A stretch of DNA of 12,066 bases from a virus. Lineage: Duplodnaviria; Heunggongvirae; Uroviricota; Caudoviricetes. The stretch lies in IMG/VR virus record IMGVR_UViG_2718217787_000003. The stretch is one strand, 5' to 3'. Below the pieces are notes generated by a model. It was not told the origin of the DNA. It did not search any database and worked only from the letters and a program-made list of their open reading frames with translations. Position numbers and translations under genes: made by a program. Positions 1,379 through 12,066 of the stretch are shown here, piece after piece. Position 1 is the first letter of the stretch. Each line of letters begins with the position of its first letter.

Positions 1379-1678
1379 ATGAAACTTAAATATTCTGGCT
1401 TAACTGCCAGCGGCAAAACTCGCACTAAATTCATGTGCGGGGATATTTACCGCGATAAGTACGGCGGCACGGTAATGATTAAGGGCGTGGAGGAACGGCG
1501 CGTAACCTACCATCGTGAAGGCTACGAATATGATTGCGTGATGCCTGTTTATCAGTTCCGGCGTGATTTTTCTCTGGTACAGGCAGCGCCCCGCAGTAAA
1601 CCAACCAGCAGGGAGAAAGCACGCGCCAATATTCAGGAAATAAAAAAGATGCTTAACGTATTCAGGGGTAAAAAATGA
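1379..1678 (+). CDS. Hypothetical basic protein, 99 aa, immediately upstream of and coupled to the replication gene
   Basis: ATG at 1379 with GGAG about 10 nt upstream. Its TGA stop overlaps the primase ATG (ATGA at 1675-1678). Lys/Arg-rich C-terminus. Confidence 0.5.
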   Translation: MKLKYSGLTASGKTRTKFMCGDIYRDKYGGTVMIKGVEERRVTYHREGYEYDCVMPVYQFRRDFSLVQAAPRSKPTSREKARANIQEIKKMLNVFRGKK

Positions 1679-3807
1679 AACTGGCACCGAACGTAAAAAA
1701 ACAGCCACGCGGAATAAAACACAAAGACACAGAGGTGATTATTTTCGCGGGTAGTGATGCGTGGGCACATGCAAAACAGTGGCAGGAGCAGGACGGCCCC
1801 GCATCCGGCGATAATGTGCCTCCTGTGTGGCTTGGGGAGCAGCAGTTATCAGAACTGGATAAGCTGCAAATTGTGCCGGAAGGCAGAAAATCCGTGCGCA
1901 TATTCAGGGCCGGACATCTTGCACCAGTAATGATCAAGGCGATTGGTCAAAAGCTGGCGGCGGCTGGTGTACAGGATGCAAATTTTTATCCTGAGGGTAT
2001 GCACGGTCAGAAGGTGGAGAACTGGCGCGAATATCTGGCCCGTGAGCGGCAGAATCTTTCTGATGGTCTGGTTATTGAGTTTCCGGTAAAGAAAAAAGAT
2101 ACCGGAAGCCATAGCGATGACGAATTAAAGCCACGCGTTGAAAGTCGCGCCGATGGTGTTTTCTGGGTAACGCCCAAAGTGGATAAGCAGTCAGGCGAAA
2201 TTATCCGGCCTGAGACGTGGTTATGTTCTCCGCTTGAACTACTGGGAACGGGGACGATCGGTAAAGAGCATTACCGCGTGATGCGCTGGAAAAAAACCGC
2301 AAACCATGAAGTCATCACAATGGCGATCCCGTGTGGTGGTATCGGCGACCGTGACGGCTGGCGGTTACTTAAAGATCACGGGCTGAACGTGACAACCAAC
2401 GGCAAATACAGGGCAATCCTGGCGGACTGGATGCAGTTAAGCGGAAGCCATGAGGAATGGCAGTTAAGCACAACAACGGGCTGGCATTTTGGCGCGTACA
2501 TCATGCCGGACGGTTCGATCATTGGTGAATCTGAAAAACCGATCCTGTTTACCGGAAAAAGCGCCGCGATTAACGGTTATTCCGTGGCGGGCACGGCGGA
2601 TGGCTGGCGCGACAGCGTGGCGCGGCTGGCTGGCGGTAATGCCTCAATGATACTGGGTGTGGCAACGTCACTGGCAGCGCCTTTAATTGGCCTTGTGGGT
2701 GCTGACGGCTTCGGGGTGCATCTTTTCGAACAGTCATCGGCAGGTAAGACCACCACGCAGAACATCGCATCAAGTTTATGGGGAGAGCCGGACGCGCAGC
2801 GGCTGACCTGGTACGGCACGGCGTTAGGTATTGCCAATGAGGCCGAGGCCCATAATGACGGGCTTTTACCACTGGATGAGATAGGCCAGGCCGGAAATGC
2901 GCGGGAAGTGTCAACGTCTGCTTATACGCTGTTTAACGGTTCAGGGAAATTGCAGGGGGCGAAGGATGGCGGCAACAGGGAGATCAAACACTGGCGAACG
3001 GTGGCAATCAGCACCGGAGAAATGGACGTTGAGACATTCCTCAAAAGTGAGGGGATAAAAGTTAAGGCGGGGCAGCTTGTCCGACTGCTTAACGTTCCGA
3101 TGGAAAAAGCCACGAAATTTCACGAATACAGCAACGGTAAGGAACATGCTGACGCGTTAAAGGATGCCTGGACAGCAAATCACGGGGCGGCGGGTCGTGA
3201 GTGGGTTAAATGGCTGGCAGGCCACCAGCAGGAGGCAAAGGACACGGTAAGGGAATGCCGCGAACGGTGGCGCAACCTGATACCGGAGAGTTACGGCGAG
3301 CAGGTCCACCGCGTGGGTGAACGTTTCGCCATACTGGAGGCCGCGCTTGTGCTTTCCGGTCATGTAACTGGCTGGGTCGTGCAGGAATGCCGCGACGCGA
3401 TACAGCATAACTTTAATGCCTGGGTGAAGGAGTTCGGCACGGGTAACAGGGAATTTAAACAGATGGTTGAACAGGCTGAGGCGTTTTTGTCGTCGTTTGG
3501 GTTTAGCCGCTACCTTCCGTACCCCAATACAGATGAGCGTGATTTACCGATTAAAGAGCTTGCCGGATACAGAAAAGGGAGCATTCGCAACGAAGATGAC
3601 GAGATGCGCTATTACACGTTCCCGCACGTGTTTGAGAGTGAGATAGCGAAGGGATTTAATCCGGCGCATTTTGCGCGTGCCCTGGATGCTGCCGGAATGC
3701 TGGAGAAGGGAAGCGATCGCCGATACAAAAAAAAGGCGCTGGGCAAGATTGGGGGTAAGCAGCATGTTTTTTACGTGCTGATGTTCCAGCCTGATGATGA
3801 AGATTAA
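1675..3807 (+). CDS. Replication initiator: primase-associated (DUF927-like) region plus P-loop NTPase (Pri-Rep type of satellites/PICIs), 710 aa
   Basis: A 2.1-kb ORF with SD AGGGG 7 nt upstream of ATG 1675. Walker A motif GVHLFEQSSAGKTT at aa 347-360 (nt about 2713-2754). Its position immediately upstream of an iteron array matches the primase-then-ori layout of P4-like satellites and PICIs. Domain names are from motif recognition, not a search. Confidence 0.85.
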   Translation: MKLAPNVKKQPRGIKHKDTEVIIFAGSDAWAHAKQWQEQDGPASGDNVPPVWLGEQQLSELDKLQIVPEGRKSVRIFRAGHLAPVMIKAIGQKLAAAGVQDANFYPEGMHGQKVENWREYLARERQNLSDGLVIEFPVKKKDTGSHSDDELKPRVESRADGVFWVTPKVDKQSGEIIRPETWLCSPLELLGTGTIGKEHYRVMRWKKTANHEVITMAIPCGGIGDRDGWRLLKDHGLNVTTNGKYRAILADWMQLSGSHEEWQLSTTTGWHFGAYIMPDGSIIGESEKPILFTGKSAAINGYSVAGTADGWRDSVARLAGGNASMILGVATSLAAPLIGLVGADGFGVHLFEQSSAGKTTTQNIASSLWGEPDAQRLTWYGTALGIANEAEAHNDGLLPLDEIGQAGNAREVSTSAYTLFNGSGKLQGAKDGGNREIKHWRTVAISTGEMDVETFLKSEGIKVKAGQLVRLLNVPMEKATKFHEYSNGKEHADALKDAWTANHGAAGREWVKWLAGHQQEAKDTVRECRERWRNLIPESYGEQVHRVGERFAILEAALVLSGHVTGWVVQECRDAIQHNFNAWVKEFGTGNREFKQMVEQAEAFLSSFGFSRYLPYPNTDERDLPIKELAGYRKGSIRNEDDEMRYYTFPHVFESEIAKGFNPAHFARALDAAGMLEKGSDRRYKKKALGKIGGKQHVFYVLMFQPDDED

Positions 3808-3829
3808 TCCCCTGTGTGAGGAAAAAAAT

Positions 3830-4145
3830 TGCGGGTTATGCGGGTTATCCTGTGTATAAGTGTATTAAGTGTATGAATATAAAGGAAATCAATAACCCGC
3901 ACGTAACCCGCAAAAGGGCATTTATAACCCGCAAAAGCACGATTATAACCCGCAGGCGAATAACTGAAGTAACACCGGACAGTCATGCGTAACCCGCAGA
4001 AAAAACCCCGTTTGCGGGTTATTTTGAGCGTTTTGCGGGTTACGTGGTGAGCAAATAATAAACAGGGTGTTTTGCAACATGCTGATATAAAAGGGTAAAA
4101 AATGGTTAGCACGCTAAGATAACCCAATAACCCGCATAACCCGCA
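3830..4145. repeat. Iteron-type origin of replication
   Basis: Seven direct copies of TAACCCGCA (3893-3901, 3904-3912, 3925-3933, 3946-3954, 3990-3998, 4128-4136, 4137-4145) and four inverted copies TGCGGGTTA (3830-3838, 3839-3847, 4013-4021, 4034-4042), with a degenerate copy at 4120-4127. Three GTGTAT-containing repeats with roughly 9-10 bp spacing at 3852-3880. A (TA)n AT-rich tract lies just downstream at 4153-4170. No credible ORF on the + strand here. Confidence 0.8.
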
Positions 4146-4179
4146 CATGTTTCTATATATATATAAATTGAGGTGGCAA

Positions 4180-4431
4180 ATGACCAGAACACGCAGAGAC
4201 AGAACAGAGCCGAAATATAAAGCGTTAGATATAACAGAGCTGGCCTTAAAGGTGGCAATCAGAACGATAGACCGACACGTAGGGGAAGGATACGCGAAGG
4301 AACATCCCGACCTGATAAGCGCATTCATGACCACAGCAGCGGCAAACTTTGCCACGTTGACAGAACGGGAGATTGCCGAAGCGGAACAGGTAACAACCAT
4401 CAACGTTAAAACCGGAGAGTTGAAATCATGA
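4180..4431 (+). CDS. Hypothetical protein, 83 aa
   Basis: ATG at 4180 preceded by SD GAGGTGG (4170-4176); track ORF 4147..4431 trimmed. Stop overlaps the next start (ATGA at 4428-4431). Confidence 0.55.
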   Translation: MTRTRRDRTEPKYKALDITELALKVAIRTIDRHVGEGYAKEHPDLISAFMTTAAANFATLTEREIAEAEQVTTINVKTGELKS

Positions 4432-4733
4432 GCGAACCAAAATTTGGTGAAAAACTTTACAAGCACAACGGACGGATCACGATTCAGCAAATAAGCGCAG
4501 CTACACCAGGCTGGTGGGTTGAAACAGACGAAGGATCCTCACCCGTGGCATCATGGGCGCTTTGTGTGCTTAGTTACCCTGACCGCGATGTGTATCAGGA
4601 TATTCTGCCTGTGATATCCACTGACAAAGGCATGAAACCCGTAGACATCAAAAACATGGGTTTTCAGTGCGTAATGCTCACTGAAAAAATGATGGAAGAG
4701 ATGAAAAAGAATAACGCCGGATCGCTTCACTGA
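4428..4733 (+). CDS. Hypothetical protein, 101 aa
   Basis: ATG at 4428 overlaps the upstream stop. No recognisable motif (MSEPKFGEKLYKHNGRITIQQ...). Confidence 0.55.
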   Translation: MSEPKFGEKLYKHNGRITIQQISAATPGWWVETDEGSSPVASWALCVLSYPDRDVYQDILPVISTDKGMKPVDIKNMGFQCVMLTEKMMEEMKKNNAGSLH

Positions 4734-4742
4734 GGTGGCAAT

Positions 4743-5153
4743 ATGACAGCACAAATTGCAGCTTACGGGCGGCTGGTGGACGACCCGCAGGTAAAACAGA
4801 CCAGCAAGGGTACACCGATGACGCTGGCGCGTATGGCGGTATCGCTGCCATGCAGCCAGGCACAGGATGGACAGGCGACGTTATGGCTATCGGTCATCGC
4901 ATTTGGTAAGCAGGCCGACTTCCTGGCTAAACATCAAAAAGGCGACGTTGCCAGCGTATCCGGCACGATGCAGGTCAGCCAGTGGACCGGACAGAACGGG
5001 GAAACGCGGCAGGGTTATCAGGTTATTGCAGACAGCGTAATCAGTGCCCGTGCGGCACGTCCTGGTGGGAGCCGACGCAAGACCACAGGCACACAGGGTA
5101 ATCAGCCACCAGCGGGAGGCGATGACCCTTACGGTGATGATATTCCGTTCTGA
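4743..5153 (+). CDS. ssb: Single-stranded DNA-binding protein, compact, 136 aa
   Basis: SD GAGGTGG (4732-4738) before ATG 4743. OB-fold-like core (...WLSVIAFGKQADFLAKHQKGDVASVSGTMQVSQWTGQNGETRQGYQVIADSV...) followed by a Gly/Pro-rich linker and the canonical SSB acidic C-terminal tip DDIPF (E. coli SSB ends DDDIPF). Confidence 0.85.
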   Translation: MTAQIAAYGRLVDDPQVKQTSKGTPMTLARMAVSLPCSQAQDGQATLWLSVIAFGKQADFLAKHQKGDVASVSGTMQVSQWTGQNGETRQGYQVIADSVISARAARPGGSRRKTTGTQGNQPPAGGDDPYGDDIPF

Positions 5154-5165
5154 GGGGTGGGGACG

Positions 5166-5438
5166 ATGGTACATGACCGCATAGCGGAAGAACTGGAGGC
5201 GAAAGGCTTTTACCGGAGAGCGTCGGCGCGATGGGGTGAAGTCATGCAACTGGTGGAGACAGACAAGGAACGGCATCAGGTTACGATGCGACGGCTGGAA
5301 TGTTCCAGGAAGGCACAGAGGCCACCGGAGCCGCCGGATAATTACGGAGACCTGAAAAAGGCGGTCGATCGCACTTATGCCGAAATGGGTATGGATGGTG
5401 CTGGTGATGAAATATGGCGAAATTACCAGGACAGATAA
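5166..5438 (+). CDS. Possible PerC-family transcriptional regulator, 90 aa
   Basis: ATG at 5166 with SD GAGGGGTGGGGA upstream; the track ORF starts at GTG 5157. N-terminus MVHDRIAEELEAKGFYRRASARWGEVM resembles the PerC/Pch family signature as I remember it; family call is tentative. Followed by a terminator. Confidence 0.55.
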   Translation: MVHDRIAEELEAKGFYRRASARWGEVMQLVETDKERHQVTMRRLECSRKAQRPPEPPDNYGDLKKAVDRTYAEMGMDGAGDEIWRNYQDR

Positions 5439-5444
5439 TCACAC

Positions 5445-5468
5445 AGCCGGAGCAATCCGGCTTTTTGT
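5445..5468 (+). terminator. Rho-independent terminator after the PerC-like gene
   Basis: Stem AGCCGGA (5445-5451), loop GCAA, stem TCCGGCT (5456-5462), then TTTTGT (5463-5468). Confidence 0.6.
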
Positions 5469-5485
5469 CATGTTTTGTAAATTAT

Positions 5486-5635
5486 TTGTTCGTGGTTGTT
5501 CCACGTTGTTCGCTGACCGGATCGGCATATTTTACCCGAACTGAATCATGATTATTCTCGCCCGTGGTGCCAGGACGCTGGGGCCACTTTCCCGCCTGTT
5601 AATGTGCTCGCCAATATTCATTACCAGGCGGGAAA
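5486..5635. promoter_or_regulatory. Leader of the head operon with tandem decamers and an 11-bp inverted repeat
   Basis: Three tandem 10-bp units TTGTTCGTGG / TTGTTCCACG / TTGTTCGCTG (5486-5515), containing the palindrome CGTGG-TTGTT-CCACG (5491-5505). An 11-bp perfect inverted repeat TTTCCCGCCTG (5588-5598) / CAGGCGGGAAA (5625-5635) with a 26-nt spacer. No clear sigma-70 consensus identified. Confidence 0.3.
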
Positions 5636-5725
5636 ACGATCGGTGCGATTGCTGATTTCCTTATGAAAAACGGTTGAGTGTTTGCCGCGTCCTGGAGTTC
5701 CTTACTTAACTTCAGGACTTTTTTT

Positions 5726-6883
5726 ATGCCGAGAATAATCGAATTACGCCAGCAGAAAACCGCCATTAAAAATCAGATGCGCGACATGCTGGAGAACGCG
5801 GAAAAAGAAAACCGCAGCCTTAACGATGCTGAGGGCGCAAAATTTGACGAATTACGCGCTAAAGCTGAATCCCTCGATAAAGACATCTCCCGCCTTGAGG
5901 CCGTTGCTGACGAAGAGCGCAGTAAACCAGGCAAAAACAGCCAGACCACTGACCCCGCCGAACTACGTCACTACATTCTGACAGGTGAAACCCGCGCATT
6001 GAGTACAGGCGTTCCCGCTGATGGTGGTTATACCGTTATCCCCGAACTGAACACCGAAATCATGCGAATGCTGACGGATGAATCCACCATGCGCCGCATC
6101 TGTACCGTGAAGAAAATCAGCAGCAACGAGTTTAAGCAGCTTGTTTCCGCTGGCGGTGCGACCGTTAACCACGGTGAAGAGGGTAAGGCACGCGAACAGA
6201 CCAGCACCCCGCAGATTAACGAGGTGAGCATTAAGCTGTATCCGGTCTATGCGTACCCGCGCACCACGCAGGAAATCGTGGATTTTTCCGATGTGGACAT
6301 CCTTTCATGGCTGACGGGCGAGATTGGCGACACCTTCACGGAAACCGAAGAAAGCGATCTGGTTGTGGGCGACGGTGACAAAAAAGCAAAAGGTTTTTTA
6401 TCCGTACCCCGTGCAGAGAAGAACGACAAAGAGCGTGATTTTGGTACGTTGCAGGTAATTAAACCTTCCGAATCTCTGGCGTGGACATCTGCGGACCCGC
6501 TGATCGACCTGAAATTTGCATTACGTAAAAAATACCGCAAAAACGCGGTTTGGGTGGTTAACTCCACGACGGCGGCAAAACTCCAGAAGGTGAAGAACGC
6601 GAACGGTGATTACATCTGGCGCGACCGTTTACAGGCGGGTGATCCTGATACGTTGCTGGGCCTTCCGGTCGAATATCTGGAGTTTATGCCTGATAACGTT
6701 ATTGCCCTGGGTGACTTCAAACGCGGTTACTACATTGTTGATCACGAAACAGGTGTTCGCACCAGACCGGACAACCTCACAGAGCCGGGCTTTATCAAAA
6801 TTTTCACGCAGAAATATTTAGGCGGTGGCGTGGTGGATTCGAACGCTATAAAGATTCTGGAACTGCCGCAGGACGACGATTAA
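5726..6883 (+). CDS. Major capsid protein, HK97 fold, with N-terminal coiled-coil delta (scaffold-like) domain, 385 aa
   Basis: ATG at 5726 with AGGA 8 nt upstream; the track ORF begins at GTG 5678. The N-terminal 90 aa are coiled-coil-like (IELRQQKTAIKNQMRDMLENAEKENRSLNDAEGAKFDELRAKAESLDKDISRLEAV), followed by a body typical of HK97-family capsid proteins. A prohead protease gene follows directly. Confidence 0.9.
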   Translation: MPRIIELRQQKTAIKNQMRDMLENAEKENRSLNDAEGAKFDELRAKAESLDKDISRLEAVADEERSKPGKNSQTTDPAELRHYILTGETRALSTGVPADGGYTVIPELNTEIMRMLTDESTMRRICTVKKISSNEFKQLVSAGGATVNHGEEGKAREQTSTPQINEVSIKLYPVYAYPRTTQEIVDFSDVDILSWLTGEIGDTFTETEESDLVVGDGDKKAKGFLSVPRAEKNDKERDFGTLQVIKPSESLAWTSADPLIDLKFALRKKYRKNAVWVVNSTTAAKLQKVKNANGDYIWRDRLQAGDPDTLLGLPVEYLEFMPDNVIALGDFKRGYYIVDHETGVRTRPDNLTEPGFIKIFTQKYLGGGVVDSNAIKILELPQDDD

Positions 6884-6892
6884 CAGCACACC

Positions 6893-6922
6893 GAAGGGGC
6901 TAAAAAGCCCCTTCTCTGTTTT
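6893..6922 (+). terminator. Terminator or attenuator hairpin just after the capsid gene
   Basis: Stem GAAGGGGC (6893-6900), loop TAAAAA, stem GCCCCTTC (6907-6914), then TCTGTTTT (6915-6922). Confidence 0.55.
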
Positions 6923-6937
6923 ACAGGTGAAAAAATT

Positions 6938-7495
6938 ATGATGAGTATGGAAATCCGGTCATCGGAAATCACCACCAGCGGCAGCAACACGCTTACGGGC
7001 TACGTTGTTCGCTGGGATAACCTTTCAGAACTGCTATGGGGCGAATTTTACGAAAAATTCCAGCGGGGGGCGTTTACTGAATGGCTTGCGGTGGGTAATG
7101 ACGTTCGCGGCCTGTATGAGCATGACCACAGCATGTTACTGGGGCGCACCCGTTCCGGTACGCTGAGACTGGAAGAGGATGACACAGGGTTACGTTTTGA
7201 ACTGATCCCACCGGATACCAGCACAGGGCGGGACGTTATCGAACTGGTTAAACGTGGTGACATCTCGGGCATGAGCTTTGGCTTTCGTTCCCGTAAGGAT
7301 GTATGGGATACGACAGTCGATCCATGTGTGCGTACTGTACTGATAGCGGAACTGTACGAAATTACCGTGACATCCGTACCGGCTTACCCTGATTCCGGCG
7401 TGGAGCTGGCCCGCCGTTCCCTGTATGAGCAGCACCCTGAAAAAATGCCTCGTGCGGATAATCGCCGCTGGTGGGCGGATTTAGCGGGGGTGTGA
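6938..7495 (+). CDS. Prohead maturation protease, HK97 family, 185 aa
   Basis: SD AGGTGA (6925-6930) before ATG 6938. Sequence (…LTGYVVRWDNLSELLWGEFYEKFQRGAFTEWL…) and position between the capsid and portal genes fit HK97-type prohead proteases. Confidence 0.85.
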   Translation: MMSMEIRSSEITTSGSNTLTGYVVRWDNLSELLWGEFYEKFQRGAFTEWLAVGNDVRGLYEHDHSMLLGRTRSGTLRLEEDDTGLRFELIPPDTSTGRDVIELVKRGDISGMSFGFRSRKDVWDTTVDPCVRTVLIAELYEITVTSVPAYPDSGVELARRSLYEQHPEKMPRADNRRWWADLAGV

Positions 7496-7496
7496 T

Positions 7497-8708
7497 ATGT
7501 GGCCTTTCAGAAGAAAAAAAGAGCAGCGCAGCATGACGCTTGATGAGTTTATGGCGCTGGCTGGCACATCGAACACGGGGGCGGGTGAGTACGTATCATC
7601 GGGGACAGCGGAATCACTGCCCGCCGTCATGAACGCCGTCACGGTCATCTCTGAGGCGGTGGCTACCATGCCGTGTTACCTGTACCTGGTACGCAATGAG
7701 AAGGGGAAGGAGGCCCGAGAGTGGCTTGATTCTCATCCGGTCGATCACATCCTCAACGAGCGCCCGAACGCATGGCAAACCCCCTACCAGTTTAAGCGAA
7801 TGATGATCCGCCACTGCCTGTTAAACGGTAATGCTTATGCGGTGATTCGGTGGGGGCGTGATGGTTTTCCGGTGGCTTTACATCCTTACCCGCCGCAGTC
7901 GGTGAACGTGGAGCAGACAGGTGAGCATAACTGGCGCTACTGCATCACTGACGCCTACACCGGAAACACCCGCAACTATTTACCGTGGGAGGTTCTCCAC
8001 CTTCGTTACTCCACGGATGACGGTTTTATGGGGCGCTCACCTGTAACCATCTGCCGCGAATCGCTGGGGCTTGGGCTGGCCCAACAACGCCACGGCGCGA
8101 GCGTGATGCGTGATGGCATGATGGCGGCAGGGGTTATCACGTCAGGCGAGTGGCTGGACGGCGTGAAGGGTAAACAGGCATTAGCCGCACTGGAACGCTA
8201 CAAAGGGGCCAGAAACGCCGGAAAAACGCCCATCCTTGAAGGGGGTATGAGCTATCAGCAGCTGGGCATGAGTAATCAGGATGCTGAATGGCTGGCCTCC
8301 CGTCGCTTCACCATTGAAGACATCGCCCGAATGTTCAACGTCTCGCCGATTTTTTTGCAGGAATACAGCAACAGCACCTACAGCAATTTCAGCGAGGCAA
8401 GCCGCGCATTTCTCACCATGACGATGCGCCCGTGGCTGGCGAACTTTGAGCAGCAGATAAAAAACGCCCTGCTGGTGGCCTCGCCTGTACCTGGTATCCG
8501 GTATCAGGTGGAGTTTGACAGCGCGGACCTGTTACGGGCCACACCTGGCGAACGCTTTGCCACCTATGAACGCGGCATCAAATCCGGCGTTATGTGCCCG
8601 AACGAAGCCCGCGAACGTGAAGGGCTGTCCCCGCGTGATGGTGGTGATGAGTTCAGCCAGGCATGGAAACAGGAAGTAAAAATCAGCGAGGGAGAAAAAC
8701 CGGAATGA
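7497..8708 (+). CDS. Portal protein, HK97 family, 403 aa
   Basis: ATG at 7497, 1 nt after the protease stop, with SD GGGGGTG upstream. Size and sequence character fit HK97-type portals. An alternative start at ATG 7539 is possible. Confidence 0.85.
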   Translation: MWPFRRKKEQRSMTLDEFMALAGTSNTGAGEYVSSGTAESLPAVMNAVTVISEAVATMPCYLYLVRNEKGKEAREWLDSHPVDHILNERPNAWQTPYQFKRMMIRHCLLNGNAYAVIRWGRDGFPVALHPYPPQSVNVEQTGEHNWRYCITDAYTGNTRNYLPWEVLHLRYSTDDGFMGRSPVTICRESLGLGLAQQRHGASVMRDGMMAAGVITSGEWLDGVKGKQALAALERYKGARNAGKTPILEGGMSYQQLGMSNQDAEWLASRRFTIEDIARMFNVSPIFLQEYSNSTYSNFSEASRAFLTMTMRPWLANFEQQIKNALLVASPVPGIRYQVEFDSADLLRATPGERFATYERGIKSGVMCPNEAREREGLSPRDGGDEFSQAWKQEVKISEGEKPE

Positions 8709-9043
8709 ACATAGGGCGACTGCGTGACAGGATAACGATTCAGACCCTGAAACAGACCAGGGATATAACCGGCGAAATACTCGAAACGTGGGTGGACGGT
8801 CACACACTCTGGGCAAGCGTGAACATGATCAGCAGCAAGGAGGCCATTTCATCGGGTGCAGAACTGGCGACTGGAACGGTAAGGATATGGATACGCTACA
8901 GGAAGGACATCAACGCCACCAGCCGGATAAAGGTCAATACGGGGCCGCTGGCGGGGCGTGTACTGAATATCATCGGGCAGCCGCTGCCGGATGCCGCCAG
9001 GACACGCCTTGAAATTCTTTGTCGTGAGGGCGCGGAAAAATGA
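8705..9043 (+). CDS. Head closure / head-tail joining protein (SPP1 gp16-like), 112 aa
   Basis: ATG at 8705 overlaps the portal stop (ATGA); track ORF 8663..9043 trimmed to this ATG. MNIGRLRDRITIQ...RIWIRYRKDI...LEILCRE matches the head-tail joining family pattern as I recall it. Confidence 0.75.
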   Translation: MNIGRLRDRITIQTLKQTRDITGEILETWVDGHTLWASVNMISSKEAISSGAELATGTVRIWIRYRKDINATSRIKVNTGPLAGRVLNIIGQPLPDAARTRLEILCREGAEK

Positions 9044-9336
9044 CAGAAGAACTTATCACCCTGGAAGAAGTGAAACTCCATTGCCGCATCGATGGCGACG
9101 AGGAAGACCAGTTAATCAGCGGATACATCGCCGCATCGCTTGAGGCGTGCCAGATACACATAGGCAGGCGCTTTGATGACGGGCTGGAGTTCACGCCAGC
9201 CATAAAGATTGGCTGCATGATGTTTATCGCTCACCTGTATGAAAATCGCCAGATTGTCGCGGATAACGCAAAAACACGCGTACCCATGACGATTGGTGCA
9301 CTCTGGACGGCTTACCGTGATGTGGGGGTGTACTGA
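9040..9336 (+). CDS. gp6-like head-tail connector protein, 98 aa
   Basis: ATG at 9040 overlaps the upstream stop (ATGA). N-terminus LITLEEVKLHCRIDGDEEDQLISGYIAAS is typical of gp6-like connector proteins. Confidence 0.75.
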   Translation: MTEELITLEEVKLHCRIDGDEEDQLISGYIAASLEACQIHIGRRFDDGLEFTPAIKIGCMMFIAHLYENRQIVADNAKTRVPMTIGALWTAYRDVGVY

Positions 9337-9776
9337 TGCCGTGGCAACCATTAAGACGATGCACAGAACCAGGCTGTAACAGGCGCGTGAAGTCCGGCAA
9401 GTGTGAGGAGCACAGGCGGGCGGCATGGCGTGCAGAGGATGCCAGACGAGGACACCGCCGCGCGCGTGGGTACTCCAGACAGTGGGACAAATACCGCGCC
9501 ATGTATCTGAGTAAAAACCCGTTATGCGTGCGATGCCTTGAGAAGGGGATATATACGCCCGCCGTGGTGGTGGATCACATTATCCCGATTAATGGCGGTG
9601 ATGATGTTCTCTTCTGGCCCGAATGGAACCATCAGCCATTGTGCCAGGCGTGCCATAACCAGAAAACGAAATGGCTTGATCCGGCAACAAAAAGCAAGCG
9701 TGCCGCAGGTGGATTTCGTGAAGAGGAAGAACGGGCCGCTAACCGCAATAACTGGATGTATGACGCTGATGAATGA
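9336..9776 (+). CDS. HNH endonuclease (packaging-associated), 146 aa
   Basis: ATG at 9336 overlaps the connector stop (TGATG). Cys pairs (CxxC) and an HNH core DHIIPINGGDDVLFWPEWNHQPLCQACHNQKT. Sits directly upstream of the terminase genes, as in HK97-like cos phages. Confidence 0.9.
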   Translation: MPWQPLRRCTEPGCNRRVKSGKCEEHRRAAWRAEDARRGHRRARGYSRQWDKYRAMYLSKNPLCVRCLEKGIYTPAVVVDHIIPINGGDDVLFWPEWNHQPLCQACHNQKTKWLDPATKSKRAAGGFREEEERAANRNNWMYDADE

Positions 9777-9942
9777 GCGGGAACAAAACCGCCTTATCCG
9801 TGGACTTATAAGGCAGCGTGACGCATGGAAGACACAGGAAACAGGGCATAAAGATAAAGCGTCAGGACGCGCAGAACGCATCACAGCGAAGCGATTAACC
9901 GACCGTGACTGCGAGGTTATGGAATGTTTCCGCAATCGCTGA
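9760..9942 (+). CDS. Possible small basic ORF (60 aa) in the HNH-terS gap; doubtful
   Basis: Part of track ORF 9538..9942, most of which overlaps HNH out of frame. Only the part from ATG 9760 (or ATG 9769) is non-overlapping. No convincing SD. Confidence 0.2.
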   Translation: MTLMNEREQNRLIRGLIRQRDAWKTQETGHKDKASGRAERITAKRLTDRDCEVMECFRNR

Positions 9943-10064
9943 TGAGGCTGTATGACGGGGTGGGGGGCGTTTTCAGGACAAACCCGCCCCCGCCGGGCAC
10001 CGAACGCCTCCTCAAATTTTTATGCACGGGAATTTTTTGAAAAATAATCTGACGAAAAATAAAC
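9943..10064. other. Candidate packaging site (cos) region between HNH and terS
   Basis: Non-coding gap with a G-run/C-run imperfect inverted repeat, GGGGGCG (9963-9969) / CGCCCCC (9985-9991), followed by an AT-rich stretch (10015-10062). Location matches where cos lies in HNH-associated cos phages. No direct evidence of cleavage. Confidence 0.3.
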
Positions 10065-10421
10065 ATGGCAAGACCACCGAAAGCCCCCGCCTACCTTGAT
10101 GACATCGCCGTAAAGCAGTGGCGGGAAAAATCGCGCCAGCTTGCGGAACGGGGAGACCTCACCCCCGCCGACTGGAGTAATCTCGAACTGTATTGCGTCA
10201 ACTACTCGATATACAGGAAAGCCGTCGCAGACCTTGCGGCACGCGGGTTCAGCATTGTTAACAGTCAGGGCGGAGAGAGCAGAAACCCCGCATTAAGCGC
10301 GAAATCCGACGCTGAAAGAGTGATGATAAAAATGGCCTCCTTGCTTGGTTTTGACCCGATAAGCCGCCGTAAAAATCCACCGGAAACAGAAGAAGAGGAC
10401 GAGCTTGACCACCTGGAATAA
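10065..10421 (+). CDS. terS: Terminase small subunit, P27-family-like, 118 aa
   Basis: ATG at 10065. Size, charge pattern (acidic C-terminus EEEDELDHLE) and position directly upstream of terL. Sequence (MARPPKAPAYLDD...RNPALSA...MASLLGFDPISRRK) fits P27-type TerS as I recall it. Confidence 0.8.
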   Translation: MARPPKAPAYLDDIAVKQWREKSRQLAERGDLTPADWSNLELYCVNYSIYRKAVADLAARGFSIVNSQGGESRNPALSAKSDAERVMIKMASLLGFDPISRRKNPPETEEEDELDHLE

Positions 10422-12066
10422 GTACGCAGAAGACGTAAAAACGGGCAAAATTCCGGCCTGTAAACGGTTAAAACAGGCCGTTAAACGGTACTTTTCGGAC
10501 CTTAAAAGTCCCCTTTACACGTTCGATAGTGAGGTTGTGGAGCGGTTTATTGCCTTTTCAAGGGTGTGCCCGCACGTAAAAGGGCCGTTGCGTGGCAGAC
10601 CCATTGAGCTGGAGCCGTGGCAGCAGTTCGCCTTTGCGTGCATCCTGGGTTTTAAGGTTAAGGCCACCGGACGGCGCAAATACTCGAGCGCTTTTATCGA
10701 AGTACCGCGAAAAAATGCGAAATCCACGACCGCCGCGATTCTGGCTGACTGGTTTCTGATTATGGAGAACGGGCAGCAGGATATTTACACCGCAGCGGTG
10801 AGCCGTGACCAGGCACGGATCGTGTTTGATGATGCGCGTCAGATGTGCCTTTTATCCCGACCGTTACGCAGGCGGGTGAATATTCAGGCCCACAAGGTGA
10901 TACACCCGAAAACCAACAGCCTGTTAAAGCCGCTGGCAGCAAAAGCGGCAACCATCGAGGGGACAAACCCGAGTCTTGCCATTGTGGACGAATATCACCT
11001 GCACCCCGATAACGGCGTTTATTCCGCGCTTGAGCTGGGGATGGGTGCACGTCCCGAAGGGCTGTTATTTGCCATTACCACATCGGGAAGTAACGTCGTT
11101 TCAGCCTGTAAGCAGCACTATGATTATTGCTGCCAGATCCTGGACGGCGAAGAGGTCAACGAATCGCTTTTTGTGCTGATTTACGAGCTGGACGATGAAA
11201 ACGAGGTTGACGATCCGGCGATGTGGATAAAGGCGAATCCCAATATCGATGTTTCCGTTGATCGTGAAAAACTGGCCTCAACCATCCAGAAAGCGCGGGG
11301 TATTCCGTCGCAGTGGGTGGAGATGATGACAAAGCGGTTTAACATCTGGTGCCAGGGGGCCACCCCGTGGATGGGTAACGGGGCGTGGGCTGAGTGTGCC
11401 GGAACGTTCACGGAGGAGGATTTACACGGCCAGGAATGTTACGCGGGGCTTGATTTGTCATCCACAAGCGACATTTCCAGCGTGTGCTATGCCTTTCCGG
11501 TCGGCAAAAAAATTATGCTGCTTTCCCGTCACTATCTGCCGGAATTTCAGCTACAGAACCCCGCCAACAAGAACCGGGCCATTTATCGCCAGTGGGCTAA
11601 ATCGGGCTGGTTGCGGATAACGCCGGGCGACTGCATTGATTACGACCGGATCCGCGATGACATCATGGAGGACGCGGAAAAATTTGATATCAGGCTGGTG
11701 GGCTTTGATACGTGGAACGCCACGCATCTCAGGACGCAATTACAGGGGGCAGGGTTTGAGGTTGAGCCGTTCCCGCAAACCTATCTGAGATTCAGTCCGG
11801 CGGCGAAATCGTTCGAAGTTTTTGTTAACCGCAGGGTGATAGTCCATCGTGATGATCCGGTGTTGTCGTGGTCGATGAGTAACGTCGTGATGCAGAGTGA
11901 CGCGAACGCCAATATCAAGCCAAACAAGAAAAAATCACCGAACAAGATAGACCCGAGCGTGGCGGCACTGATGGCGTTTGGCACATTCCAGGCAGAGCAT
12001 GAAGATTTTGCTTTTGATATAAGCGACAGCCACCGCGAAAAACTGGAAGAATTTAACGGGGTGTGA
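10405..12066 (+). CDS. terL: Terminase large subunit, 553 aa
   Basis: A 1.66-kb ORF directly after terS. The first in-frame start is TTG at 10405 with SD GAAGAGGA (10391-10398); the next candidates are a GTG about 130 nt downstream and an ATG at codon 120. Overlaps terS by 17 nt. Size and sequence fit HK97-type large terminases (ATPase plus nuclease). Stop TGA at 12064-12066 is the window end. Confidence 0.88.
   Translation: MTTWNKYAEDVKTGKIPACKRLKQAVKRYFSDLKSPLYTFDSEVVERFIAFSRVCPHVKGPLRGRPIELEPWQQFAFACILGFKVKATGRRKYSSAFIEVPRKNAKSTTAAILADWFLIMENGQQDIYTAAVSRDQARIVFDDARQMCLLSRPLRRRVNIQAHKVIHPKTNSLLKPLAAKAATIEGTNPSLAIVDEYHLHPDNGVYSALELGMGARPEGLLFAITTSGSNVVSACKQHYDYCCQILDGEEVNESLFVLIYELDDENEVDDPAMWIKANPNIDVSVDREKLASTIQKARGIPSQWVEMMTKRFNIWCQGATPWMGNGAWAECAGTFTEEDLHGQECYAGLDLSSTSDISSVCYAFPVGKKIMLLSRHYLPEFQLQNPANKNRAIYRQWAKSGWLRITPGDCIDYDRIRDDIMEDAEKFDIRLVGFDTWNATHLRTQLQGAGFEVEPFPQTYLRFSPAAKSFEVFVNRRVIVHRDDPVLSWSMSNVVMQSDANANIKPNKKKSPNKIDPSVAALMAFGTFQAEHEDFAFDISDSHREKLEEFNGV

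Follow-up and report, generated by a model that had tools for sequence, protein, structure and literature searches.

The closest described system to the locus considered here is EcCIEDL933 of Escherichia coli O157:H7 EDL933, the prototype of the cf-PICIs (phage-inducible chromosomal islands that are capsid-forming). Experiments with the prototype showed that a helper phage induces the island, that the island makes small T=4 capsids of its own and packages exclusively itself, and that it is transferred on stolen tails (bioRxiv 10.1101/2022.09.08.507074; 10.1101/2025.02.11.637232). Mutation of each gene of the EcCIEDL933 module abolished transfer (bioRxiv 10.1101/2022.09.08.507074), and mutation of its hypothetical gene 1792 reduced transfer severely. 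Here we consider a stretch of viral DNA of 12,066 nt (IMG/VR record IMGVR_UViG_2718217787_000003; 'the window' below means this whole stretch), in which positions 5726-12066 carry head and packaging genes. We are highly confident that 5726-12066 is the capsid-and-packaging operon of a cf-PICI, a 15.85-kb Escherichia coli O157 satellite, and we regard this as the best explanation of the locus as a whole; by its sequence, the window is a close variant of EcCIEDL933 situated at a different attachment site. The layout of the operon is already known, being the published signature of proteobacterial cf-PICIs.

Genes were called from a six-frame listing of open reading frames (ORFs) and from Pfam and PHROGs, and their starts were compared with RefSeq. 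The eight head and packaging genes form one co-directional string, all on the + strand, and a further small ORF lies within the 289-nt gap between the HNH and terS genes:

5726..6883, + strand: major capsid protein with the HK97 fold, opening the operon (Phage_capsid PF05065 2e-61; PHROG 10 1e-89)
6938..7495, + strand: prohead serine protease, Peptidase_S78 (Pfam 4e-46; PHROG 80 9e-66)
7497..8708, + strand: portal (Phage_portal 1e-90; PHROG 12 5e-116)
8705..9043, + strand: head-closure or stopper protein Hc1, HK97 gp7 / SPP1 gp16 family (Phage_HCP PF05521 3e-24; PHROG 25 4e-35)
9040..9336, + strand: head-tail adaptor Ad1, HK97 gp6 / SPP1 gp15 family (Phage_connect_1 PF05135 8e-12; PHROG 40 8e-36)
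9336..9776, + strand: HNH endonuclease, packaging cofactor of HK97-type terminases (Pfam HNH 2e-8; PHROG 144 8e-45)
9760..9942, + strand: conserved 60-aa ORF (RefSeq coding sequence; phrog_3173 4e-36)
10065..10421, + strand: small terminase TerS, P27 / Terminase_4 family (Pfam 1e-23; PHROG 83 4e-39)
10405..12066, + strand: large terminase TerL, TTG start, its stop codon ending at the last base of the window (TerL_ATPase and TerL_nuclease; PHROG 9 2e-181)

An earlier interpretation of the same DNA, made before any database search (the sequence-only reading), had proposed the order capsid, protease, portal, head closure, connector, HNH, gap, TerS, TerL; Pfam and PHROG assign all eight proteins in agreement with it. 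The overlaps that it had listed were also found as described: ATGA at 8705 joins the portal stop with the Hc1 start, ATGA at 9040 joins the Hc1 stop with the Ad1 start, TGATG at 9334 joins the Ad1 stop with the HNH start, and terS and terL overlap by 17 nt if terL starts with TTG at 10405, the start also used by RefSeq. Two other starts were rejected: 8663 for Hc1, in favor of 8705 (RefSeq, ATGA coupling), and GTG 5678 for the capsid gene, in favor of 5726; RefSeq agrees with the latter choice, and the position of a hairpin at 5689-5718, which the GTG start would put inside the ORF, argues against GTG as well. Going by gene count, the 60-aa ORF is probably the counterpart of EcCIEDL933 gene 1792.

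Compared with the EcCIEDL933-type element of strain WS4202, the products of the window's genes were 99% (major capsid protein), 96% (protease), 99% (portal), 95% (Hc1), 100% (Ad1), 99% (HNH), 99% (TerS) and 96% (TerL) identical; Ad1 has the same RefSeq accession, WP_000134113.1, in both. The WS4202 record describes the strain as 'derived from CIP 106327' and contains a single matching element, between roxA and phoQ, with another integrase. With packaging proteins that match those of the prototype at 95-100% identity, the island would be expected to share its helper-dependent lifestyle.

Three complete E. coli genomes contain the window over its full length with 100% identity; in 107 genomes, 80% or more of it is present. 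In NZ_CP039834.1 the island occupies 15,847 bp between perfect 70-bp direct repeats at the rcnR side/thiM site, with the whole window inside; this agrees with the size of cf-PICIs, about 10-18 kb bounded by att sites (size range from bioRxiv 10.1101/2025.02.11.637232). Searches of island ORFs against protein families showed a tyrosine integrase and Phage_AlpA just left of the window; inside the window there are Icd-like genes, a DUF4222 protein, a DUF927 primase, SSB, a PerC-family activator and iterons, so that the combination of integrase, AlpA regulation and primase-based replication characteristic of cf-PICIs is present. One small gene following the eight head and packaging genes completes the island. 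Pfam and PHROG searches of all island ORFs gave no match to tail, holin or lysin families, and the flanks are chromosomal genes; like a cf-PICI, the island is without lysis genes and without a complete tail module. All eight head and packaging components have strong Pfam and PHROG scores, and the morphogenetic genes come first, followed by hnh-terS-terL, as in the published description. As far as sequence features go, the island possesses every one that defines cf-PICIs. It does not qualify as an HK97-like temperate phage, since the gene order differs and tail genes are absent, nor as a classical PICI, since portal, Hc1, Ad1 and TerL are all present; in the PICI model of SatelliteFinder the portal, the head-tail connector/adaptor and TerL are 'forbidden' components.

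We analyzed the conservation of the gene order in a portal-anchored sample of 80 relatives (IMG/VR viral contigs with 78-100% portal identity, representing the cf-PICI clade only). All eight genes were detected in 58 of the 80 loci, and all 58 had exactly the order of the window, a degree of conservation well above chance; among the remaining loci there were truncated contigs consistent with this order, and 17 loci lacking Hc1 only. Two records named as phages, Pasteurella 'phage' Pmp8 (15.3 kb) and 'phage' vB_KppS-Ant (16.5 kb), both had the same order. For comparison with phages, the portal-anchored scan was repeated with HK97 as the first sequence, and annotated phages were added. All 80 loci anchored on the HK97 portal had the order HNH-TerS-TerL-portal-protease-capsid-Ad1-Hc1-Tc-Tt-MTP. 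The canonical order was also seen in all seven annotated phages with portals nearest to that of the window (30-34% identity; hosts Klebsiella, Burkholderia, Shigella, Streptococcus, Caulobacter and Pseudomonas, plus one gut phage) and in all four prophages flanking the relatives. A third sample was anchored on Hc1, the search being started from four close Hc1 sequences; its 78 loci fell into 37 with portal-Hc1-Ad1-HNH and no tail genes and 41 with capsid-Ad1-Hc1-Tc-Tt-MTP, with no intermediates. Altogether, 132 of 132 phage-type loci (80 + 7 + 41 + 4) were canonical and none had the satellite order. The claim of the sequence-only reading that the head genes run opposite to the HK97-like order holds for this whole set, and the comparison of synteny that it had called for places the order of the window in cf-PICI relatives and in 0 of the 132 phage-type loci.

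A mis-assembled or chimeric contig could in principle create such an order; we give this a practically negligible chance, since three complete genomes, independent of one another, contain an identical copy of the window and 107 cover 80% or more of it. Together with the uniform order of the 58 complete loci, this upholds the earlier view of a fixed operon layout as opposed to assembly noise.

One could also think of a decayed HK97-like prophage which lost its tail and lysis genes and had the rest scrambled, with the order being an accident. The eight proteins do all belong to HK97-type families and carry labels of plain phage proteins in RefSeq; nevertheless, we find this origin very improbable, because the ORFs are intact and tightly coupled, the same order and the ~15-kb size recur in more than 100 contigs across Enterobacteriaceae and Pasteurellaceae, the left arm is of PICI type, with AlpA and DUF927 primase, and every gene is needed for transfer in the near-identical prototype. 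In addition, the portal of the window is at most 36% identical to any phage portal versus 62-81% identical to four satellite-derived records in the phage collection. At the nucleotide level, a search of this collection matched six records only and no true phage: four were short or satellite-sized (1.6-16.5 kb), one was of 10.7 kb and one of 106 kb. The 106-kb record, Klebsiella phage P12620-1, has a cf-PICI packaging module at its very end and may be a chimeric assembly. GenBank 'phage' records that are, or contain, cf-PICI modules include LR881103.1, OR544139.1, OR544138.1, PQ569648.1 (102-106 kb), OR850982.1 and OR845787.1.

The two neck proteins could be told apart by family. The profile of the Ad1 family matched, in the PDB, HK97 gp6 (3JVO; gp6 itself was in the profile), the RcGTA adaptor and Neck 1; the profile of the Hc1 family matched SPP1 gp16 (head completion/stopper), the RcGTA stopper and Neck 2. 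A single-sequence PDB search with Ad1 produced only a spurious match, to a designed repeat protein, and the family profile was needed. On these matches, the protein of 8705-9043 is a member of the Hc1 family and that of 9040-9336 a member of the Ad1 family; the assignment is not reversed, and the statement that head closure precedes the gp6-like connector is supported by Pfam, PHROG and PDB profiles alike. An experimental structure of a cf-PICI Hc1 already exists under a generic name: the protein solved by nuclear magnetic resonance as PDB entry 2KZ4, whose deposited title is 'putative head-tail adaptor', and the product of 8705-9043 are alleles sharing 96% identity. In solved relatives (SPP1, RcGTA and similar) the stacking is portal, then adaptor, then stopper. 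The Ad1 family sits directly on the portal in solved virions and the Hc1 family forms the second ring; membership in these families predicts the same placement for the proteins of the window. The genes, in the order portal-Hc1-Ad1, run counter to the order of assembly (portal, Ad1, Hc1) expected from the solved relatives. In published cf-PICI work 'adaptors' are 35-50% identical between islands and 'connectors' 61-83% (bioRxiv 10.1101/2025.02.11.637232); as these ranges match those seen here for Hc1 and Ad1, respectively, the 'adaptor' of the cf-PICI papers is Hc1 and the 'connector' is Ad1. The order of Hc1 before Ad1 is therefore implicit in the published work; a search of a limited literature set found no text remarking on it.

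The similarity profile of Hc1 differs from those of its neighbors. Hc1 of the window was 48-53% identical to Hc1 of HK97, HK106 and a prophage, and 48-55% to Hc1 of HK97-like phages overall, versus 37% and 24% for the Hc1 proteins of two other cf-PICI-like elements. The other module proteins were 22-41% identical to those of HK97/HK106 (with no detectable match for TerS) and 42-83% to those of the two cf-PICI-like elements. In the phage collection, the top 30 matches of Hc1 were true enterobacterial phages and the top matches of Ad1 were satellites; Ad1, portal and TerL of the window are closest to those of other cf-PICIs. Beyond its own cluster (at least 95% identity), 41 of 44 next-best homologues of Hc1 were from phages. 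The Hc1 proteins of cf-PICIs formed at least nine clusters at 70% identity, as near to phage Hc1 as to one another. Judged by these identities, Hc1 has an evolutionary history of its own, discordant with the rest of the module. Hc1 would be the tail-facing layer, an exchangeable cassette matched to the tail of the helper and not co-inherited with the module; such a separate history fits the published role of adaptor and connector in tail specificity, as swapping the adaptor and connector genes alters which phage tails the capsids accept (bioRxiv 10.1101/2025.02.11.637232).

Some relatives lack Hc1. In the 17 Hc1-less loci of the portal-anchored sample the portal gene overlaps or abuts Ad1, and 15 of the 17 represent one lineage, exemplified by IMGVR_UViG_2563366874_000005, in which the stop of the portal gene and the start of Ad1 overlap. 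On its left flank, in 12 contigs (L175, L176, L178 and L181-L189), we found HNH, TerS and the N-terminal residues, about 6-311, of a phage TerL; on the right flank, in all four loci long enough (L044, L056, L065 and L084, right junction, about 14.2-21 kb), TerL residues of about 307-541 were followed by portal-protease-capsid-Ad1. Hc1-Tc-Tt-MTP were also detected on the right in three of these four, the tail genes being HK97-like. As read from these junctions, the lineage lies within terL of an HK97-like prophage, and this prophage encodes the Hc1 that the satellite lacks. A search of a limited literature set for satellites integrated in a terL gene found none; the authors of SatelliteFinder mention a preprint on satellites inside prophages.

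In one left-junction contig (L183:7511-9934, minus strand), the frame of the split terL stays open across about 60 codons of the junction and runs into the integrase of the satellite, making an 807-aa ORF. It could be due to chance, or it could couple expression of the integrase to the late operon of the helper; contigs with this type of junction are nearly identical, and conservation is uninformative. Another observation concerns a second Hc1-less pair, L025 and L063, with TerL 81-82% identical to that of the window, where the portal ends at 11212 and Ad1 starts at 11230, with an 18-nt gap; Hc1 may have been lost more than once.

The Hc1-less loci bear on the origin of the portal-Hc1-Ad1 arrangement. 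Their abutting or overlapping portal and Ad1 genes, together with the phage-like identity profile by which Hc1 disagrees with its neighbors, would be expected if Hc1 had been inserted secondarily, as a helper-phage cassette, between a portal and an Ad1 that once were adjacent. We think this unlikely: portal-Hc1-Ad1 is present even in Pmp8, a distant element from Pasteurella, and hence is an old arrangement; the elements without Hc1 fall within the set of those that have it (with TerL 92% identical to that of the window), which favors loss; and replacement within an existing slot explains the data equally well. Secondary insertion is thus less likely than replacement or loss. One could further speculate that the slot 3′ of the portal gene is a hot-swappable tail-docking cassette, in which cf-PICIs repeatedly replace Hc1 by helper-derived or helper-matched versions. 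This would explain both the discordance of Hc1 and its position before Ad1; lineages that dropped Hc1 and reside in a prophage terL would presumably borrow the Hc1 and the tail of the prophage, keeping terL split until excision. We offer this extension tentatively, with more doubt than belief.

Two of the satellites named as phages have additional genes related to tails. In vB_KppS-Ant (L003:2036-4333, LR881103.1) a full-length tape-measure-like gene directly follows TerL (phrog_2854 2e-176); in Pmp8 (L005:1-408 and 6620-7078, OR544139.1) there is a tail-terminator gene 5′ of the capsid gene and a tail-completion gene 3′ of TerL. These tail-interface genes blur the 'no tail genes' rule for cf-PICIs.

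The position of the terminase genes at the end of the operon has to be considered with respect to the packaging site. The gap between the HNH and terS genes contains one more feature:

9957..10047, strand not assigned: conserved non-coding block, candidate cos (conservation, ends of LR881103.1, layout)

This block of ~90 bp is near-invariant among 75 distinct intergenic sequences and more conserved than the adjacent ORF. It holds GGGGTGGGGGG ... CCCGCCCCC plus a T-rich stretch, and its layout of G-run, CCCC and T-run resembles the cos flank of HK97. The linear record LR881103.1, obtained from an induced particle preparation, starts 22 nt 5′ of terS and ends just past the small ORF downstream of HNH; its ends align with the HNH-terS gap of the window. 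We infer that cos is located within 9957-10047. With cos in this gap, terS/terL would open the packaged DNA and HNH would close it, an arrangement shared with HK97; the packaged map would read terS, terL, ..., capsid, protease, portal, Hc1, Ad1, HNH. The statement that the terminase comes last would then be true only for the att-linearised (integrated) map, and relative to the probable cos site terS/terL come first and HNH last. By the same reasoning, only the five genes for head and neck would be rearranged relative to cos, having left their place downstream of terL for one upstream of HNH.

Two blocks are reversed in order: portal-protease-capsid became capsid-protease-portal, and Ad1-Hc1 became Hc1-Ad1. 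The description 'inverted' is accurate for gene order and not for DNA; a single DNA inversion was rejected as the origin of the order, since every gene keeps the same strand.

Hairpins were observed at both ends of the capsid gene:

5445..5718, + strand: operon leader (hairpins 5445-5462 and 5689-5718; 17-nt inverted repeat 5588-5635)
6893..6914, + strand: intrinsic-terminator-like hairpin and T-tract directly 3′ of the capsid gene (9-bp stem, 6 GC pairs)

The terminator-like hairpin 5689-5718 ends 8 nt before the capsid ATG 5726, and a second one is at 5445-5462. Such leader hairpins suggest that the operon may be reached by read-through or antitermination; a promoter scan of 5100-12066 gave nothing above the shuffle expectation. 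Of 76 relatives, 61 were positive in a crude test for a hairpin with a T-tail 3′ of the capsid gene, and inspection by eye showed a hairpin with a T-tract in all the remaining ones but one; the stems differ by lineage (GGGGCT/AGCCCC, GGAGGC/GCCTCC and, in Pasteurella, GGGGGCT/AGCCC). HK97 has an annotated putative terminator after gene 5. The capsid gene being first and an attenuator second would produce a simple gradient, with ~240 capsid subunits per 12 portal or neck subunits and catalytic terminase.

Conservation of the post-capsid hairpin bears on the question whether the order has any functional meaning. It could be a frozen historical accident of module capture, locked by the stop/start overlaps. 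Firmicute cf-PICIs, which arose independently, use other orders, including one with HNH-TerS-TerL first (bioRxiv 10.1101/2022.09.08.507074), hence the order is not required for the lifestyle; the overlapping junctions, too, make later shuffling costly. On the other hand, retention of the hairpin in nearly all relatives with lineage-specific stems suggests selection on expression polarity, and one Firmicute group also starts the operon with portal, protease and capsid (bioRxiv 10.1101/2022.09.08.507074). We treat the frozen accident as a serious possibility which we nevertheless lean against.

In the working model, a helper phage would induce the island; the protease-cleaved capsid protein would form small T=4 heads of the HK97 fold on the island's own portal; HNH, TerS and TerL would cut and package the island DNA only; and the two neck proteins would dock the filled head onto tails of an HK97-like helper such as HK106. 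Several points weigh against parts of this picture. The integrase, the att site and ~8% of the sequence differ from EcCIEDL933, so induction and helper range could differ as well. WS4202 (CIP 106327) is probably an EDL933 derivative; the matching element size agrees with this, and the record does not say so. Part of the discordance in Hc1 identity could stem from convergence or from a higher rate of evolution instead of exchange. About 72 bp of the window's gap are not matched by the ends of LR881103.1, which may not be the exact cos termini, and the terminator role of the post-capsid hairpin is putative.

The part of the window preceding the operon has the following features:

1675..3807, + strand: DUF927 primase/replicase, replication module of PICI type (Pfam DUF927 1.4e-48; PHROG DNA primase 8e-191)
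3823..4152, strand not assigned: iteron cluster TAACCCGCA / TGCGGGTTA, in both orientations (repeat families D1, D3, D5, D6, I1-I4, I6, I7, I9, I10)
5166..5438, + strand: PerC-family transcriptional activator, immediately 5′ of the packaging operon (Pfam PerC 1e-43; RefSeq)

More than 10 copies of TAACCCGCA / TGCGGGTTA are present in the low-GC gap 3′ of the primase gene, and the cluster at 3823-4152 is probably the origin of replication. L056, one of the relatives without Hc1, has this cluster of iteron motifs after TerL instead (14290-14470). At the left end, positions 1-772 of the window differ from the left end of the EDL933-type island; RefSeq annotates there an Icd-like pseudogene, which is truncated, another short Icd-like gene at 569-772 and, at 58-363 of the minus strand, a gene of the YlcI/YnfO family, and a Pfam search with a mechanically derived 256-aa ORF, 2-772, gave no match. 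Searches of the window with Rfam and ARAGORN detected neither RNA families nor tRNAs, respectively.

As to the meaning of these observations, the window contributes a further allele of a satellite that has been studied well, and differs in integrase and att site. The cf-PICI signature is recognizable from the DNA alone, and it can be sharpened: only the five head and neck genes would be rearranged relative to cos, and portal-Hc1-Ad1 is absent from the sampled phage loci. Hc1 as a separate phage-like cassette would fit the published control of tail specificity, hence of host range, by adaptor and connector. The terL-resident Hc1-less satellites, if confirmed, would represent a satellite physically controlling the packaging gene of its helper; this lineage and the cassette behavior of Hc1 are the only leads that might merit pursuit.

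Among known systems, EcCIEDL933 (Alqurainy et al., 10.1101/2022.09.08.507074; He et al., 10.1101/2025.02.11.637232) has the same genes in the same order, from the Icd-like gene to TerL. Its size is about 15.2-15.5 kb compared with 15.85 kb for the island; the integrases are different, as are the sites, rcnR side/thiM for the island and roxA/phoQ for the EDL933-type element. The left end of the window has an extra YlcI/YnfO-family gene and a split Icd-like gene; the island has an extra 101-aa gene at 4428-4733, whereas in the EDL933-type element perC and the capsid gene are separated by an extra gene. Among the module proteins, Hc1 has diverged most in this comparison (6 of 112 residues).

Other proteobacterial cf-PICIs (the published KpCIDSM30104 and EcCIGN02175; records LR881103.1 and OR544139.1) have the same single-strand order; compared with the window, the two records show 62-82% identity for portal and TerL and only 37% and 24% for Hc1. 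HK97 and HK106 share with the island the same eight families, the HNH-cos-TerS-TerL adjacency and a terminator-like element after the capsid gene. Their Hc1 is 48-49% identical to that of the window compared with 22-41% for the other proteins, TerS being not detectably similar; their order is TerS-TerL-portal-protease-capsid-Ad1-Hc1-Tc-Tt-tail, and as phages they carry tail, lysis and lysogeny modules.

The two groups of Firmicute cf-PICIs, known here from the published description (Alqurainy et al., 10.1101/2022.09.08.507074), have the same minimal components and the same tail-stealing lifestyle; they differ in having independent origins and other gene orders, one group with HNH-TerS-TerL first. 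Finally, classical Gram-negative PICIs (EcCICFT073, EcCIED1a) share with the island the int-alpA-primase left arm; they have no portal, neck proteins or TerL, and they remodel capsids of the helper instead of building their own.

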